Assembly: GCA_020200235.1 (NCBI GenBank) | Contig: JAIVJC010000008.1 | Span: 449 to 64,448 of the forward strand | DNA length: 64,000 bases | Origin: Acidobacteriota bacterium | Lineage (GTDB): Bacteria; Acidobacteriota; Blastocatellia; Pyrinomonadales; Pyrinomonadaceae | Reading direction: 5' to 3' | Shown here: positions 8,153-24,776 of the stretch, piece after piece | Layout: every line of letters begins with the position of its first letter | Numbering within the stretch: position 1 is the stretch's first letter | Position numbers and translations under genes: made by a program | The notes under the pieces: model-generated | Database searches by the model: none | What the model saw: only the letters and a program-made list of their open reading frames with translations | What the model was told of the DNA's origin: nothing

Positions 8153-10087
8153 ATGAAAAGCCCAGAGAAACTGATCATGGGTATCCCACGCCGCCATCGT
8201 AGGACAACACTCAAATCGCTGTTCACGTTACTCCTCTGCCTTGTCGCGGGCATTATCCTCGCGGACCGCTCGGCGCACAAAGCGTCAGCCGGTGGTTCCC
8301 ACGACAAGATTTCCGCCGATCTGAAGAAGAAGATTCAGACCACGAACAGCGGTGACATGATCGATGTCATCGTCGTCCCTGTGGGCGGGTGGAATGGCAC
8401 GCTTGATTCAGAGGTGGGAAACAACTCCGGGAAGATCAAAAAGAATTTCAGCAAGCTCAACTCGCGCCCGGTGCAAATGCCGGCCTACGCGATCAGCAAT
8501 CTGGCGAAAAGCCCCGACGTTGATTATGTGGCGCTCGACCGCCCGCTCAAGTCGCTCGGTCACGTCTCATTGACGACGGGCACTGACGCCGCGCGCTCGC
8601 TCGGCATCTTGACGAAGTACGAAGGCACGGGCGTCGGCATCGCCGTCATCGACTCCGGCATCTATGTCAACCATGCCTCGTTCGGGGGTCGCGTTGCCTT
8701 TAGCAAGGACTTCACGGGCGAGGGGCGCACGGACGACCCCTACGGGCACGGCACGCACGTCGCCTCCATCGCCGCCGGCAACGGAGCCGTGTCGAGCGGC
8801 GCATACCAGGGTATCGCCTCGAACTCCAAGATCGTCAGCCTGCGCGTGCTTGATTCGCAGGGTCGAGGCTCTGTCTCCAGCCTGCTCGGTGCGCTCGATT
8901 GGGTGCTTGCCAACCGAGCCGCCCACAACATCCGCGTCGTCAACATCAGCCTCGGCACGACCGCCATCGACTCGTACCTATATGACCCCCTCTGCCAGGC
9001 GGCGCGCCGCCTCGTGAACGCCGGGGTTGTCGTCGTCGCCGCCTCCGGCAACGAGGGCAAAGACGGATCGGGGCGCGAAATCTACGGCCAGGTCCACTCG
9101 CCAGGCAACGAGCCCTCTGTCATCACGGTCGGCGCGTCGAACTCCTTTGGCTCCGACTTGCGCAGTGACGACATAGTGACCACTTACAGCTCGCGTGGCC
9201 CGACGCGCAGCTTCTGGAGCGACCCGAATGGCACACGCCATTACGACAACCTGATCAAACCGGATCTAGTCGCGCCCGGCAACAAGATCATCGCCGCGCA
9301 GTCGCCCGGCAACTACCTCGTCCTGAACAACCCTTCGCTCGACGCCAACGTGAGTGGATCGGACACCCGCGCGCAGATGTACCTGAGCGGCACGTCGATG
9401 GCTGCGCCAGTTGTCTCCGGCGCCGCGGCGATGATGTTGCAAGCCAACCCGTCTCTCACCCCGAACCTCGTCAAGGCGATACTCTCTTACACGGCGCAGC
9501 CGCTCATGGGCTTCAACCCTCTACAGCAGGGCGCTGGCGAGATCAACGTCGAGGGCGCGGTGCGCATGGCGAAGGCTGTGCGGTCGGACTTGGGCCTCGT
9601 CAATCTCGTAATCGGCTCGCCACTGCTCTGCCCCGGCTGCTCGCTCCCGACCCAGCAGACGACGATAGCGGGCTTCAGCTTCCAATGGTCGCAGGGCGTC
9701 ATCTTCGATCAGACTTACGGCACGGGCGCCACCCTGATGACGCAGTACCAGAAGGTCTACGCGCTCGGCGTCCTGATGGGCGACGCCACGGTCGAGAGCA
9801 ACGGGGTCCTCATCGGTGACGGTGTCTTGATCGGCGACGGCGTGCTGATGGGCGACACACTCCTCACCAGCGACGGCACGACCATGAACGGCGGGACGTA
9901 TTTCTACGGGACGGGTGTCCTCATCGGCGACGGCGTCTTGCTCGGCGACGGCGTCCTCATCGGCGACGGAGTGCTGATGGGCGACGGAGTGCTGATGGGC
10001 GACGGAGTGCTGATAGGAGATGTGGCATCGCAGGCCGCGCACGCACTTACACACGGCGACGCGACGGCGTGCATGGTCGCCAACTAA
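8153..10087 (+). CDS. S8 (subtilisin) family serine protease with C-terminal GDGVLx hexapeptide-repeat tail
   Basis: Catalytic triad motifs AVIDSGI (Asp), HGTHVASIAAG (His) and GTSMAAPVVSGAAA (Ser). There is an N-terminal hydrophobic anchor or signal. GC is lower than the flanks. Confidence 0.9.
   Translation: MKSPEKLIMGIPRRHRRTTLKSLFTLLLCLVAGIILADRSAHKASAGGSHDKISADLKKKIQTTNSGDMIDVIVVPVGGWNGTLDSEVGNNSGKIKKNFSKLNSRPVQMPAYAISNLAKSPDVDYVALDRPLKSLGHVSLTTGTDAARSLGILTKYEGTGVGIAVIDSGIYVNHASFGGRVAFSKDFTGEGRTDDPYGHGTHVASIAAGNGAVSSGAYQGIASNSKIVSLRVLDSQGRGSVSSLLGALDWVLANRAAHNIRVVNISLGTTAIDSYLYDPLCQAARRLVNAGVVVVAASGNEGKDGSGREIYGQVHSPGNEPSVITVGASNSFGSDLRSDDIVTTYSSRGPTRSFWSDPNGTRHYDNLIKPDLVAPGNKIIAAQSPGNYLVLNNPSLDANVSGSDTRAQMYLSGTSMAAPVVSGAAAMMLQANPSLTPNLVKAILSYTAQPLMGFNPLQQGAGEINVEGAVRMAKAVRSDLGLVNLVIGSPLLCPGCSLPTQQTTIAGFSFQWSQGVIFDQTYGTGATLMTQYQKVYALGVLMGDATVESNGVLIGDGVLIGDGVLMGDTLLTSDGTTMNGGTYFYGTGVLIGDGVLLGDGVLIGDGVLMGDGVLMGDGVLIGDVASQAAHALTHGDATACMVAN
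9767..10021 (+). repeat. In-frame 18-nt (hexapeptide) tandem repeats inside the S8 protease gene
   Basis: There are two blocks, about 9767-9858 and 9914-10021. The unit ggcgacggagtgctgatg is perfect at 9962-9979 and 9980-9997, and has one mismatch at 9998-10015. Confidence 0.85.
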
Positions 10088-19217: not shown

Positions 19218-19337
19218 CTCTTCGACCTCCTCCGATTATTCCGAGCCACTATTTGAACGCGGCTCTCCTCATTTCCTTGCGGGCGCGGCGGCGGTTTGTG
19301 GTACAAAACTTCGGCGGGGGACGGAGGCGACTGCCGG

Positions 19338-21200
19338 ATGATTAGTTTCGGGGCGGACGAATGCGCGCGGCTCGACGCGGCTTCGCGGCGCGAGTGGCTT
19401 GAGACGAACGGGCTGGGCTTCACCTACCGCGCGGGCGATTTCGAGATCGAAAAAAAAGTCTTCATGCAGCACTGTCAGAACACGACGGTCGTCCGCTACG
19501 GCTTCACCGCGCCGCGGGGTGCGAAGGCTCGGCTCGAACTCCGCCCGCTCGTCGCCTTCCGCGACTACCACTCGCTCGCGCGCGAGGCGCTCGACATCTT
19601 TCTCCGCGCCGAGATGAAGAAGGGGCTCCTGCGACTCGGCAGGCGCGACGACTCCCTCGCGCTCTTCCTCGCGCACGACGCGCGCTCGGTCTCCGTCGAA
19701 GGGCTCTGGTACAGGAACTTCGAGTACGCGGAAGAGCGCGAGCGCGGCTTCGACTGTCACGAAGACCTCTTCAACCCGTGCCTGCTGACGTTCGACGTTT
19801 CAAGCGGCTCTTCGTGCGACATCATCGCCTCGACGGAGCGGCGCGACGCGGGCGAAGCCGCGCTGCTCGAAGACTCGGAGCGCGCGCGTCGCCGCGGACT
19901 CAGCCTTTCCATCTTAGAGGTAAACACACAAGCCTCTGCGAAAGACGACAACACCGCATCATCAAGTGGGGTGAAGGACGAACGCGATGACGGCATCGAA
20001 GCAGCGGAGCAGGATGTTGATGAAGACATCGCGGGCGGCGAAGAGCGCGCCGAGCATCTGAAGTCGCTCGCGCGCGCCGCCGATCAGTTCGTCGTCCGCC
20101 GCGGCGAAAGCCTCTCGACCGTCATCGCCGGCTACCACTGGTTCACCGACTGGGGGCGCGACACGATGATCTCGCTCACGGGTCTCGCCCTCGTGTCGCG
20201 CCGCTTCGAAGAGGCGCGCGAAACCCTCCTCGCCTTCGCCGCGAGCCTCGATCAGGGCTTGATCCCGAACCGCTTCCCCGACGCGGGCGAACGCCCCGAA
20301 TACAACACCGCCGACGCCACGCTCTGGTTCGTCAACGCCGTGGGCGAGTACCTGCGCCGCGCGCGGGACGAACAGTTCGTCCGCGAGAAATTGTACGAGC
20401 CCCTTCTCGAGATCATCCGCTGGCACGAGCGCGGCACGCATTACGGGATCCGCATGGCGGAGGACAGTCTGCTGCGCGCGGGCGACGTGGACGCGCAGGT
20501 CACCTGGATGGACGTGAAGCTCGGCGACTATCTGGTGACGCCGCGCACGGGCAAGCCCGTCGAGATTCAAGCGCTCTGGTACAACGCGCTGCGCACGGTC
20601 GAGGCGCTCGCGCGCCGCTTCGGCGACGAGCCCACGCGCAACCGCTGCCGTGCCACAGCCGACGCCGCGCGCGCCAGCTTCAACGGTCTCTTCTGGAACG
20701 AGGCGGAGGATTGTCTCTACGACTGCGTCTCCGACGCGGGCGAGCCGGACGACTCGCTGCGACCGAATCAAATCTTCGCCGTCAGCCTGCCGCACGCGAT
20801 CACGACGGGCGAGCGGGCGCGCTCGGTCGTCCGCAAGGTCGAGCAGGAGTTGCTCACGCCCTTCGGTCTGCGCTCGCTCTCGCCGCGCCACCCCGCATAC
20901 CGCGGTCGCTACGAGGGCGACGCATACTCGCGCGACACCGCGTATCATCAGGGCACGGTCTGGGCCTGGCTGCTGGGTCCCTTCGTCACGGCTTACCTGA
21001 AAGTTAACGACCGCTCGCCGGAGAGCGTGGCAGCGGCGCGCGGCTGGCTCGGCAACTTCCGCGCGCACCTGCGCGAGGCGGGGCTCGGTCAAGTCTCCGA
21101 AATCTTCGACGGCGACGCGCCCCACGCGCCGCGCGGCTGCATCGCCCAAGCCTGGAGCGTCGCCGAGATTTTGCGTTGCGAGTTGGAAGAGGTAGGCTGA
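19338..21200 (+). CDS. Amylo-alpha-1,6-glucosidase / bacterial glycogen-debranching-type enzyme (GDE_C), atypical N-terminus
   Basis: GDE_C-type motifs AGYHWFTDWGRDTMISL, PNRFPD, YNTADATLWF, VEIQALWYNAL, RPNQIFAVSLP and YHQGTVWAWLLGPF. I chose ATG 19338 (MISFGADE...). Confidence 0.8.
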   Translation: MISFGADECARLDAASRREWLETNGLGFTYRAGDFEIEKKVFMQHCQNTTVVRYGFTAPRGAKARLELRPLVAFRDYHSLAREALDIFLRAEMKKGLLRLGRRDDSLALFLAHDARSVSVEGLWYRNFEYAEERERGFDCHEDLFNPCLLTFDVSSGSSCDIIASTERRDAGEAALLEDSERARRRGLSLSILEVNTQASAKDDNTASSSGVKDERDDGIEAAEQDVDEDIAGGEERAEHLKSLARAADQFVVRRGESLSTVIAGYHWFTDWGRDTMISLTGLALVSRRFEEARETLLAFAASLDQGLIPNRFPDAGERPEYNTADATLWFVNAVGEYLRRARDEQFVREKLYEPLLEIIRWHERGTHYGIRMAEDSLLRAGDVDAQVTWMDVKLGDYLVTPRTGKPVEIQALWYNALRTVEALARRFGDEPTRNRCRATADAARASFNGLFWNEAEDCLYDCVSDAGEPDDSLRPNQIFAVSLPHAITTGERARSVVRKVEQELLTPFGLRSLSPRHPAYRGRYEGDAYSRDTAYHQGTVWAWLLGPFVTAYLKVNDRSPESVAAARGWLGNFRAHLREAGLGQVSEIFDGDAPHAPRGCIAQAWSVAEILRCELEEVG

Positions 21201-21240
21201 ATCCTATCGTCGTGTAGGTTGGTACCGCCTGCCACTTTCG

Positions 21241-21374
21241 ATTGCGGAATGCGGATTGCGGATTGCGGATAAGGGGGATCGAGCCATTCTCTCATTGACC
21301 AAATGACTCAACGACTCAATGAGACAGTGATTTAATCCTCTTCAATCCGCATTCCGAAATCCGAAATCCGCAAT
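21241..21374. repeat. Inverted arrays of tandem heptamers (A[TA]TGCGG x4) flanking a 74-nt low-GC spacer
   Basis: Left arm 21241-21270 is ATTGCGGAATGCGGATTGCGGATTGCGGAT. Right arm 21345-21374 is ATCCGCATTCCGAAATCCGAAATCCGCAAT. The arms are complementary at 26 of 30 positions. Confidence 0.8.
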
Positions 21375-21394
21375 TCTCACTGAGGAATCGTTGA

Positions 21395-21556
21395 ATGCCG
21401 ACCAACACGCCGCCGCCCTATTTCCCGCAGGGCTCGCTACAGCCGCCCGACCCGAACCGCTGGCGCAAGATCAAGGGCGGGTTCTTCGGCTGCCTCGCGC
21501 TCATCCTCCTCCTGCTCGTCGCGCTGGCGACGTGGCTCGTCACGCGCGCACACTGA
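21395..21556 (+). CDS. Possible small membrane protein (53 aa), below the ORF-track size cut-off
   Basis: ATG 21395 is preceded by gaggaa. The product is MPTNTPPPYFPQGSLQPPDPNRWRKIKGGFFGCLALILLLLVALATWLVTRAH*, with a Pro-rich head and one clear TM helix. Confidence 0.35.
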   Translation: MPTNTPPPYFPQGSLQPPDPNRWRKIKGGFFGCLALILLLLVALATWLVTRAH

Positions 21557-23495: not shown

Positions 23496-23610
23496 AGTAC
23501 TGTGTACTGAGTACTGTGTACTGAGTGAAAGATGATCTCTCGCTCTCGCTTTCGTTACTGCTCTTGCTCCTATCTCAGTACTCAGTACTCAGTACTCAGT
23601 ACTCAGTACT
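23496..23610. repeat. Inverted arrays of tandem heptamers ([AT]GTACTG x4 / CTCAGTA x5) between convergent stop codons
   Basis: Left arm 23496-23525 is AGTACTGTGTACTGAGTACTGTGTACTGAG. Right arm 23574-23610 is (CTCAGTA)x5 followed by CT. The arms are complementary at 28 of 30 positions across a 48-nt spacer. Confidence 0.85.
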
Positions 23611-23618
23611 TCTTTTCA

Positions 23619-24776
23619 TCACTGCTTGTTGAAGTGCTCGATGACTACGCGCGCGACGGTGGGGATGATGTCGCGCTCGTTCGCCTGATTCTCGGTGAAG
23701 GTGACGACGACGAAGCGCGCCCCGTTCGGCAGCTCGATGTAGGCGGCGTCGTGCCGCGTGGTCGAAGTCCAGCCAGCCTTCGACCAGAGCCGCGCGCCGG
23801 GGAAGTCTTCGAGGGCGATGCCCGTGAAGCCGTGCGCCTGATCGTCGGCGTCCTTCGACTCGCCCGCGAAGTCGCGCTTCAAAAGCGACCTCATCGCGGC
23901 GCTGCGCGCCGGGGTGACGGCGCGATCCGTGGCGATCTCGGCGAGCAGGCGCGCGACGGCGTCGGTCGTGAGCTTGTTGCGGTTCTCGCCCTTCGCGCCG
24001 CGCGAGAAGCGCTCGCGCCCGTAGGCGTCCTCGCAGAAAGTCTTCTGGTTCGTGTTGATGTTCGTGTAGCCGAGCGAGGCGAAGTAGCGGTTGACGGCGT
24101 CGCGCTTCTGCTGCCAACGCTTCATCTCCGCGCCCTGAAGCTCCCTGCCGCTCGTCGTGTCCGTGAGCATGTCGAGGACGTAGCCGGTCGCGTCGTTGGA
24201 AGAATCGACGATCATGTCGCGCAGCGCGCGCTTCAGCTCGTCGGTCTCCTTGAGCCTCCCGTCTTCGAGCAGGCGGTGCGCGTAGGCGAGGTAGAAGAGC
24301 TTGACGACGCTCGCCGGGTAGATGCGCTCGTTGCCGCGGAAACTCCCCTGGGCGGGGCGCGCCGTGTCGCGCAGGTCGATGACCGTGATCGCGAGCTGAC
24401 TCTCCGTCAGCTTTTTACCGGCGAACTTCTTCAACGCAGCGCGCGCCGCCGCGTCGACTAACGACTGAAGCTCCGGCGACTGCGCGGGCATCAGCCGGGT
24501 CGTCGATGCGGGCTGTGTTTTGTTCGCCGACTTTTTACGCGCAGACGCGCCTGATGGCGTGATGATAGACAAAACTACCGCGGCGAAGAATAGACCTCTT
24601 GCGAAAGTGGCGACAGGTCGGAACCGCCTGCGGTAGCGGGCGGGTGTGTGCGACGTAAGAGACCCGCCCGCTACCGCAGGCGGTTCCGACTTGAGAGACC
24701 CGCCCGCTACCGCAGGCGGTTCCGACTTGATAGCGACGCGCGACGTTCGCAAGATGTCTAATATTTTTTTGCTCAT
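23619..24776 (-). CDS. Class A beta-lactamase-fold serine hydrolase (secreted); 5' end uncertain
   Basis: SxxK motif (PASVVKLFY), SxN-like motif (DSSNDATG) and KTG-like motif (SKAGWT). An internal signal-like segment reads RRRFRPVATFARGLFFAAVVLSIITPSGASA. The only ATG upstream is at 24776 (MSKKILD). The 815-aa track ORF further upstream is a shadow of gltS. Confidence 0.7.
   Translation of the reverse strand: MSKKILDILRTSRVAIKSEPPAVAGGSLKSEPPAVAGGSLTSHTPARYRRRFRPVATFARGLFFAAVVLSIITPSGASARKKSANKTQPASTTRLMPAQSPELQSLVDAAARAALKKFAGKKLTESQLAITVIDLRDTARPAQGSFRGNERIYPASVVKLFYLAYAHRLLEDGRLKETDELKRALRDMIVDSSNDATGYVLDMLTDTTSGRELQGAEMKRWQQKRDAVNRYFASLGYTNINTNQKTFCEDAYGRERFSRGAKGENRNKLTTDAVARLLAEIATDRAVTPARSAAMRSLLKRDFAGESKDADDQAHGFTGIALEDFPGARLWSKAGWTSTTRHDAAYIELPNGARFVVVTFTENQANERDIIPTVARVVIEHFNKQ
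24617..24729. repeat. REP-like element: 29-bp perfect inverted repeat plus a second tandem 36-nt copy
   Basis: gtcggaaccgcctgcggtagcgggcgggt (24617-24645) pairs with acccgcccgctaccgcaggcggttccgac (24662-24690) around a 16-nt loop. The 36-nt unit agagacccgcccgctaccgcaggcggttccgacttg is repeated at 24658-24693 and 24694-24729. Confidence 0.85.

Follow-up and report, generated by a model that had tools for sequence, protein, structure and literature searches.

Inverted heptamer arrays form an abundant class of extragenic palindromes in a Pyrinomonadaceae genome, with a small four-helix-bundle gene in the loop of the full form

Introduction

Intergenic heptamer repeats have been known since 1990, when the STRR heptamers of heterocystous cyanobacteria were described (Mazel et al. 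1990, as cited in PMC4692102), and they are still unexplained. One such case is that of Xanthomonas campestris and X. axonopodis, which have about 180 intergenic GGGAATC arrays, with 70-75 convergent pairs and a preference for four units (Rehm et al. 2015, PMC4692102). These arrays show a strong tendency to adjoin or overlap a stop codon, their length varies between species with the gene context kept, and their G-tract unit has been studied as a G-quadruplex former (PMC4692102). Arrays of the heptamer GGGGAYT are found in Nostoc, and that study did not connect heptamer arrays with any protein gene (Rehm et al. 2015, PMC4692102). The TAACTGA repeats of Beggiatoaceae, which occur upstream of start codons, comprise 169 direct sets and 1 inverted set (PMC4679880).

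Heptamers also occur in the intervening sequences that interrupt helices 9, 25 or 45 of 23S rRNA in Coxiella burnetii and Leptospira (PMC4990558). The Coxiella burnetii intervening sequence has a 28-bp terminal stem within which RNase III cuts (Warrier et al. 2016, PMC4990558), and its S23p open reading frame is preceded, in the 5' part of the sequence and its stem region, by GACAGAT heptamers whose number is strain-variable (PMC4990558). Intervening sequences of the S23p type are regarded as selfish and horizontally acquired, and the S23p protein of Xanthomonas forms a pentamer, a ring built of four-helix bundles (PMC4990558). Our literature search found no paper joining intergenic heptamer hairpins to PF05635, the family of S23p.

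Here, we describe an inverted heptamer element from a member of the Pyrinomonadaceae and the genome-wide class to which it belongs. We present evidence that the stems of this class are inverted tandem-heptamer arrays, that its full form holds a PF05635 gene in the loop, and that the element under study is a gene-less member. Furthermore, we weigh an RNase III-type role for the transcribed stems against explanations based on neutral replication by-products, terminators and transposases.

Results

A heptamer-armed hairpin downstream of a glycogen debranching enzyme gene

The stretch of DNA analysed here, called the window, is 64,000 nucleotides long and corresponds to C218:449-64448 in an assembly of 4.08 Mb (258 contigs, 66% GC, 88% complete). 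The element under study begins 40 nt past the stop of a plus-strand gene for a glycogen debranching enzyme (19296-21200; GDE_C / GDE_N; PF06202, E 1e-131) and precedes a plus-strand ORF of 53 aa (21395-21556), which is predicted to encode a small membrane protein and has no Pfam match. A repeat search placed its arms at 21241-21270 and 21345-21374, each of 30 nt, complementary at 26 of 30 positions (87%) and 74 nt apart, and Tandem Repeats Finder reported a period of 7 with 4.4 copies at 21240-21270 and likewise at 21344-21374. The left arm is G-rich and reads GATTGCG GAATGCG GATTGCG GATTGCG GAT, and the right arm is C-rich and reads AATCCGC ATTCCGA AATCCGA AATCCGC AAT. A second element with the same architecture and the unit AGTACTG/T lies between convergent genes at 23496-23610; its arms (23496-23525 and 23574-23603) are 93% complementary, and three more inverted pairs of this unit are present in the genome. 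Both elements had been described in a first-pass annotation of the window, together with the debranching-type gene upstream and the small ORF downstream of the first, and the coordinates, complementarity and gene context given there are borne out by our analysis.

Folds and alignment show that the spacer (21271-21343) is itself self-complementary, so that the stem carries on inward. An inner stem pairs 21290-21298 with 21316-21324 (TCTCATTGA / TCAATGAGA) around a loop of 17 nt, and the inverted pair tcattga (21292-21298) / tcaatga (21316-21322), which the annotation had noticed in the spacer, is the apical stem in that predicted structure. The segment 21236-21379 (144 nt) is predicted to form a single long hairpin spanning about 134 nt, in which the heptamer arms make up the outer stem, GGGGGAUC/GAUUUAAUCC the middle and UCUCAUUGA/UCAAUGAGA the tip. 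The predicted RNA fold has an energy of -64.6 kcal/mol, compared with -35.1 +/- 3.7 kcal/mol for shuffled sequences (z -7.98; 0 of 200 shuffles as good), and the predicted DNA fold reaches -32.7 kcal/mol (z -5.44). No ORF was found in the 74-nt spacer, and a search of Rfam gave only sub-threshold microRNA-like matches, which fall on neighbouring hairpins.

Downstream of the right arm the next bases are AATTCTCACTGAGG, with no T-run, and a ribosome-binding site, GAGGAA (21382-21387), lies 8 nt 3' of the arm and ahead of the 53-aa ORF. This ORF begins MPTNTPPPYFPQG and is hydrophobic in its C-terminal half. Its start region is conserved in the five congeners of our comparison set, whose flanking genes are 78-94% identical to those here, which indicates that it is a real small gene.

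A BLAST search with the gap containing the element recovered seven further full-length copies in the genome at 67-75% identity, spacer included, and further full-length copies are present in the congeners G001, G006 and G008. Alignment of the eight full-length copies resolves three nested palindromes: an outer GC-rich repeat, the heptamer arms and an inner array of CATTGA words. The words of this inner array are 8-10 nt long in the sister copies, resemble CATTGATC (CATTGA) and face each other in inverted orientation. The outer repeat, GGAACCGCCTGC...AGCGGGCGGG, occurs in 146-161 copies genome-wide, with its core motif GAACCGCCTGC found 161 times, and 5 of 8 sister copies have it around the GATTGCG hairpin; at the window copy it is reduced to a degenerate remnant, GGTACCGCCTGCC, at 21221-21233. 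Elsewhere in the window (24617-24776) the same GC-rich palindromic repeat (GGAACCGCCTGC(N)AGCGGGCGGG / CCCGCCCGCTACCGCAGGCGGTTC) is present as a hairpin with a 36-nt tandem copy.

An abundant class of paired and handed heptamer arrays

The genome contains 383 arrays of period 7 with at least about three copies, compared with 5 of period 8 and 8 of period 9. This excess excludes chance; a chance low-complexity hairpin is what the first-pass annotation would have been left with had there been no further copies in the genome and no conservation in relatives. At a looser cut-off 796 period-7 arrays fall into about 20 unit families, of which the largest are GATGAAC (183 arrays), AGCTGTT (86), GAATGCG (74), GATTGCG (61), GATGAGT (58) and GATGAAG (45). 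Pairs of arrays within 250 nt number 251, and 217 of these are inverted, as against 4 direct. Among 362 unpaired arrays, 257 have a degenerate inverted partner, defined as a reverse-complement match of at least 76% within 220 nt (6 in the control). Together, the inverted pairs and the degenerate partners give about 350 hairpins in this 88%-complete genome. The most common arm length is four units, and the 217 clear elements take up about 19 kb of non-coding DNA.

The G-rich arm is the 5' arm in 207 of the 217 elements and in 24 of 27 unit families, a true handedness for which a palindrome as such gives no reason. This handedness bears on an account in which the elements are neutral by-products of replication, produced by heptamer slippage and by fold-back (template-switch) palindrome formation, with no function and with the PF05635 gene described below as a passenger. 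On this account, coding DNA would not tolerate the arrays, since 7 is not divisible by 3. A heptamer excess reported in many bacteria has been ascribed to slippage (cited in PMC4692102). The 5' bias of the G-rich arm is evidence against this account, as is the GATGAAC family. In that family the palindrome is fixed, 81 nt long at the median, with one internal unit that is irregular; it is present in 59-64 copies, which is more than local slippage can produce. Its arms are near-identical, its centres are unrelated (58 of 59 distinct, mean identity 0.34), and 43 of 59 copies have variable triplets that are complementary. We judge a purely neutral origin unlikely.

The window copy and its class resemble the Xanthomonas arrays in several respects. 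Both occur in high-GC genomes, as convergent intergenic arrays near stops, in many copies and with a preference for four units; the window copy has 4.4 units on each side with 26 of 30 positions complementary, in line with a definition of at least three convergent units per side, and its distance of 40 nt from a stop compares with a genome median of 5 nt for a class of 217 inverted pairs. The differences are equally plain. Xanthomonas has one G-tract unit, whereas about 20 units without G-tracts are found here; GATTGCG, GAATGCG and most other units lack the run of three G that a G-quadruplex would call for. Furthermore, nearly all arrays here are paired, and the elements are nested. The STRR and TAACTGA repeats are likewise intergenic tandem heptamers of many copies in which a single unit is common to distant phyla, and cyanobacterial genomes with STRRs, like the present genome, have several unit types each. 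TAACTGA arrays, in contrast, are direct and stand ahead of starts, whereas the elements here are inverted pairs after stops.

The full form of the class encloses a PF05635 gene

Five complete PF05635 genes and one truncated gene are present in the genome, and all six lie in the loop between inverted heptamer arrays, the units of which all differ from one another. The arms of the cassette at C138:9367-9801 consist of GAATGCG/GATTGCG, the words of the window copy. The remaining cassettes have arms of GATGAAC, including the irregular unit of the 81-nt palindrome (C256), or the units AGTGATG (C200), CAGAGGT (C137), GTCCGTT (C29) and GAAGGAT (C43). All five complete genes are co-oriented with their neighbouring genes. 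The C138 protein, of 118 aa, matches TIGR02436, 'four helix bundle protein' (E 5e-25), and PDB 2RLD (E 4e-18).

The association extends beyond this genome. PF05635 genes are present in 10 of 10 genomes of the genus, at 1-8 each, and in 35 of 51 genomes of the class. At an inverted repeat score of at least 30, 54 of 59 PF05635 genes from 39 genomes of the class (92%) are bracketed by an inverted repeat, compared with 2 of 59 in a reverse-not-complement control, and the arm period among the 54 is 7 in 47 cases, 8 in 4 and 9 in 3. A bracketing of this frequency stands against the notion that slippage and fold-back alone, with the gene a passenger, produced the elements. Thus the class consists of extragenic palindromes whose stems are inverted tandem-heptamer arrays, typically with four units per arm, and its full form holds a small four-helix-bundle gene (PF05635 / TIGR02436, S23p) in the loop. 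Because a cassette with the same arms carries a PF05635 gene, and because such genes are consistently bracketed, the window element is a gene-less member of this class.

Gene-bearing and gene-less forms also occupy orthologous sites. At the C138 site, a gene-bearing cassette in this genome corresponds to gene-less hairpins with other units in G005, G007 and G001; at the C256 site, the cassette with GATGAAC arms corresponds to a gene-less GATGAAC palindrome in G003 and G001 and to other hairpins in G005 and G007. Clades of the PF05635 protein match the units, mostly at orthologous loci, and for non-syntenic pairs drawn from different genera the identity of the proteins drops from 0.76 to 0.31 with a rise in unit distance from 0 to 5. 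This trend is consistent with joint descent of gene and arms. We considered specific recognition of the heptamer by the PF05635 protein as the meaning of the co-variation and set it aside, since it is confounded by shared descent.

The six PF05635 genes are of the same design as the S23p intervening sequences, with an inverted-repeat stem, heptamers and an ORF. The window copy has the long, heptamer-containing terminal inverted-repeat stem of that design, and the PF05635 ORF is absent from its loop and present in the C138 cassette (9367-9801) with the same arms. It lies between protein-coding genes rather than in a 23S rRNA helix, and no intervening sequence was found in the only complete 23S rRNA of the genus (G006; 2936 nt for 2925 model positions). 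The genome encodes RNase III (rnc).

Words are replaced at persistent sites

In the congeners, the site of the window element (21201-21394) is occupied by other structures. A different hairpin, CTCTGTG/CACAGAG, is present in G005 (locus L011), a GCAGAGG/CCTCTGC hairpin with 8-nt spacing in G003 (locus L013), and a small unrelated hairpin in G001, while G008 and G007 have gaps of only 53-56 nt with flanks too diverged for exact insertion borders to be drawn. The CTCTGTG/CACAGAG and GCAGAGG/CCTCTGC words are not among the common units of the present genome, which points to word repertoires that are specific to species.

Across four regions (about 64 kb), an array was present in the relative in 21 of 42 comparisons at occupied sites and in 2 of 41 at unoccupied ones. 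The unit at an orthologous site often differs; one site has GATGAAC in the present genome (G000) and G001, GTCCGTT in G005 and G008, and an AGCTGTT-like unit in G003. Conservation of site occupancy in spite of word replacement counts against a neutral by-product, and would be expected of host-selected hairpins, since some hairpin is kept at the same sites across species.

Where orthologous elements are retained, their arms differ by mirrored substitutions and by whole units, as in C35:4731 compared with G008. The element at C35:19831 has 3/2 units and its G005 orthologue 3/4, a variation in unit number that slippage would readily account for. Inner hairpins are present or absent inside retained outer hairpins (C35:14289 in G005, C86:1942 in G008). 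The proposal that the arms evolve in steps of 7 nt is thus supported by whole-unit changes between orthologous copies, and the comparison adds that both arms change in concert, that elements nest and that they replace one another.

Beyond the genus, the exact inverted GATTGCG pattern, a strict one, was found in 0 of 300 other Acidobacteriota genomes, a sample without congeners. A collection-wide scan found exact (GATTGCG)4 in at least 118 contigs, where our own arithmetic gives a chance expectation of about 1e-5 matches. The contigs are labelled as Acidobacteriota (Pyrinomonadaceae, Blastocatellia), Planctomycetota, Verrucomicrobiota, Chloroflexota, Gemmatimonadota, Bacteroidota and Proteobacteria; although the labelling of metagenome bins can be in error, the loci range from 42 to 73% GC. 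Among the 80 loci analysed, inverted GATTGCG pairs in other phyla show the same handedness by 16:1. A PF05635 ORF was found near 1 of the 118 listed loci, within the flanking DNA retrieved. The contigs include one from an isolate, the cultured gammaproteobacterium Stagnimonas aquatica strain THS-13, which has an uninterrupted run of at least 16 GATTGCG units on contig03 (locus L125; 1218-1329) and could be a tractable host for work on this word.

No target-site duplication or transposase partner was found

The first-pass annotation had likened the element to a MITE. That comparison holds in part: the element is a gene-less derivative, and there are cassettes that share its arms and contain a PF05635 gene. 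Movement by a transposase, either a DDE enzyme or a REP-associated tyrosine transposase, would agree with the terminal inverted repeats, the large number of dispersed copies, the presence/absence differences between congeners and a patchy occurrence, the GATGAAC palindrome being present in 9 of 41 related genomes with 4-64 copies each. The target-site duplication that such movement would predict is, however, not visible at the window copy, nor at the 59 well-defined GATGAAC palindromes (at k=3, 1 observed and 0.5 expected; 0 at k>=4), an absence that a neutral origin would share. In this genome the only ORF-bearing elements with heptamer-array ends are the PF05635 cassettes, and PF05635 is not, to our knowledge, a known transposase. 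Inverted arrays 250-6000 nt apart occur in 7 cases, 2 of which are PF05635 cassettes, and no transposase-sized candidate was found among those tested. The pattern of conserved arms with unrelated centres also speaks against a transposase, and we consider transposition of this kind very improbable. A classical MITE was rejected, since there is neither a target-site duplication nor a transposase-coding parent with the same ends.

REP elements are not built of tandem heptamers. REP/BIME elements, and REPINs with their RAYT genes, nevertheless resemble the present class as extragenic palindromes of hundreds of copies at 3' gene ends, often nested or clustered. The difference lies in the associated gene: the RAYT-like gene of this genome that is flanked by repeats has another repeat and not heptamer arrays. 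Neither of the two Y1 transposase genes has heptamer arrays beside it, the second having no repeat flanks at all, and a REPIN/RAYT origin was rejected on this ground. The Y1 (IS200/RAYT-like) gene with flanking repeats encodes 148 aa and lies at C186:4850-5480 (locus L030), between CCCACGGC(N)GCCGTGGG repeats that have about 30 copies in the genome; the locus has the classical REP-RAYT layout and no relation to the heptamer hairpins.

The elements sit inside transcription units and show no strand preference

With gene calls from our own GC3-based method, 127 elements lie in co-directional, 38 in convergent and 6 in divergent gaps, against a background of 2143, 494 and 497 gaps, respectively; 42 elements were scored as 'genic', mostly owing to over-extended starts. 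The median distances are 5 nt past the upstream stop and 20 nt ahead of the next start. The elements thus avoid promoters and sit inside transcription units. Their depletion from divergent gaps argues against a neutral by-product. Both the depletion and the enrichment directly after stops, in convergent and co-directional gaps, would suit bidirectional terminators or 3'-end stabilizers of the REP/BIME kind, selected by the host independently of the PF05635 gene. The very stable stems, with an average of about -57 kcal/mol, and flanks with a mild excess of A on the 5' side and of T on the 3' side, add to this case. Several properties oppose it. In a weak test confined to the 40 elements measurable after boundary refinement, at least four T in the next 8 nt followed the stem in only 6, so that a U-tract is generally lacking; the stems, at 40-60 bp, are far above intrinsic-terminator length; and with the next start a median of 20 nt away inside apparent operons, full termination would silence the downstream gene. 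Neither the 7-nt period nor the link to PF05635 is explained by such a role, and it appears improbable to us. As for the window copy itself, an intrinsic terminator was rejected, given one hairpin of about 134 nt in place of a short GC-rich stem and the lack of a T-run after it. The annotation's view that the element resembles neither an ordinary terminator nor an ordinary REP family agrees with the genome-wide set, in which one architecture is built from many heptamers, and the element is not a classical MITE, REPIN or intrinsic terminator.

Stem stability averages -56.94 kcal/mol in the sense and -56.90 kcal/mol in the antisense orientation (wins, 65 and 61), and G-U pairs number 303 and 305. 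This equality gives no sign that the RNA made in the direction of transcription is under selection, and a DNA-level role or no role fits it equally; a neutral origin would likewise leave no strand asymmetry. Nothing marks the elements as directional RNA signals or canonical terminators. Among public sequencing runs compared with the window, the best contains 8% of its words, and no RNA run was found to include it.

At C256:31040-31080 (locus L168, about 1440-1480), the end of the upstream gene, ..GAA ACG ATG AAC TAG, lies inside the first units of a GATGAAC arm, and congeners retain ..GAAACGATGAGC.. at the orthologous gene end. An arm can therefore overlap, and perhaps grow from, a coding 3' end.

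Discussion

The class described here is abundant, lies in transcribed gaps after stops, persists at sites where its words are replaced, changes its arms in concert by whole units, and nests. We hold with moderate confidence that the window element is a gene-less member of this class of heptamer-armed palindromes, and that its arms are transcribed into a putative RNase III-substrate stem. As to function, an RNase III-type RNA hairpin is our best guess, drawn from analogy and from the position of the elements. Upon transcription of the operon, the arms would pair into an imperfect double-stranded RNA stem of about 50-60 bp, which may be a substrate of RNase III as in the S23p-type intervening sequences of 23S rRNA. 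Cutting by the enzyme would divide the transcript at these points, and what is left of the stem would form stable stubs on the newly made ends. The complementarity of the arms could be upheld by slippage together with arm-to-arm template switching on a DNA hairpin, and new copies may come from a copying step that prefers the loops of hairpins already in place and does not duplicate the target site. As the window copy has no ORF, any role of the PF05635 protein there would be indirect. A neutral or DNA-level reading stands alongside the preferred RNase III mechanism and fits the lack of strand asymmetry equally well.

A bolder proposal, which we regard as doubtful and put forward tentatively, is that the heptamer-armed hairpins and the PF05635 protein constitute one tiny, previously unrecognised genetic element, in which the protein recognises its own array and promotes its copying. 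The pentameric four-helix-bundle protein would contact about one unit per subunit, and arms here are of 4-5 units. With its help the palindrome would be copied into hairpin loops already present in transcribed DNA. The outcome would be gene-less copies by the hundred in the leaders and trailers of mRNAs and, in other bacteria, the intervening sequences of 23S rRNA. If true, cyanobacterial STRRs, Xanthomonas heptamer repeats and rRNA intervening sequences would have a common explanation, and should the PF05635 protein prove to be the arrays' partner, one explanation would cover several repeat classes and a large family of four-helix-bundle proteins now called 'hypothetical'.

This genome is a clean test bed for these ideas, with many unit types, gene-bearing and gene-less copies with the same arms, and replacement, nesting and concerted change among congeners, in a setting where heptamer repeats make up a visible share of the non-coding DNA. 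Because the elements lie inside operons and adjoin stop and start codons, they probably influence how mRNAs are processed or how stable they are in this little-studied phylum of soil bacteria.
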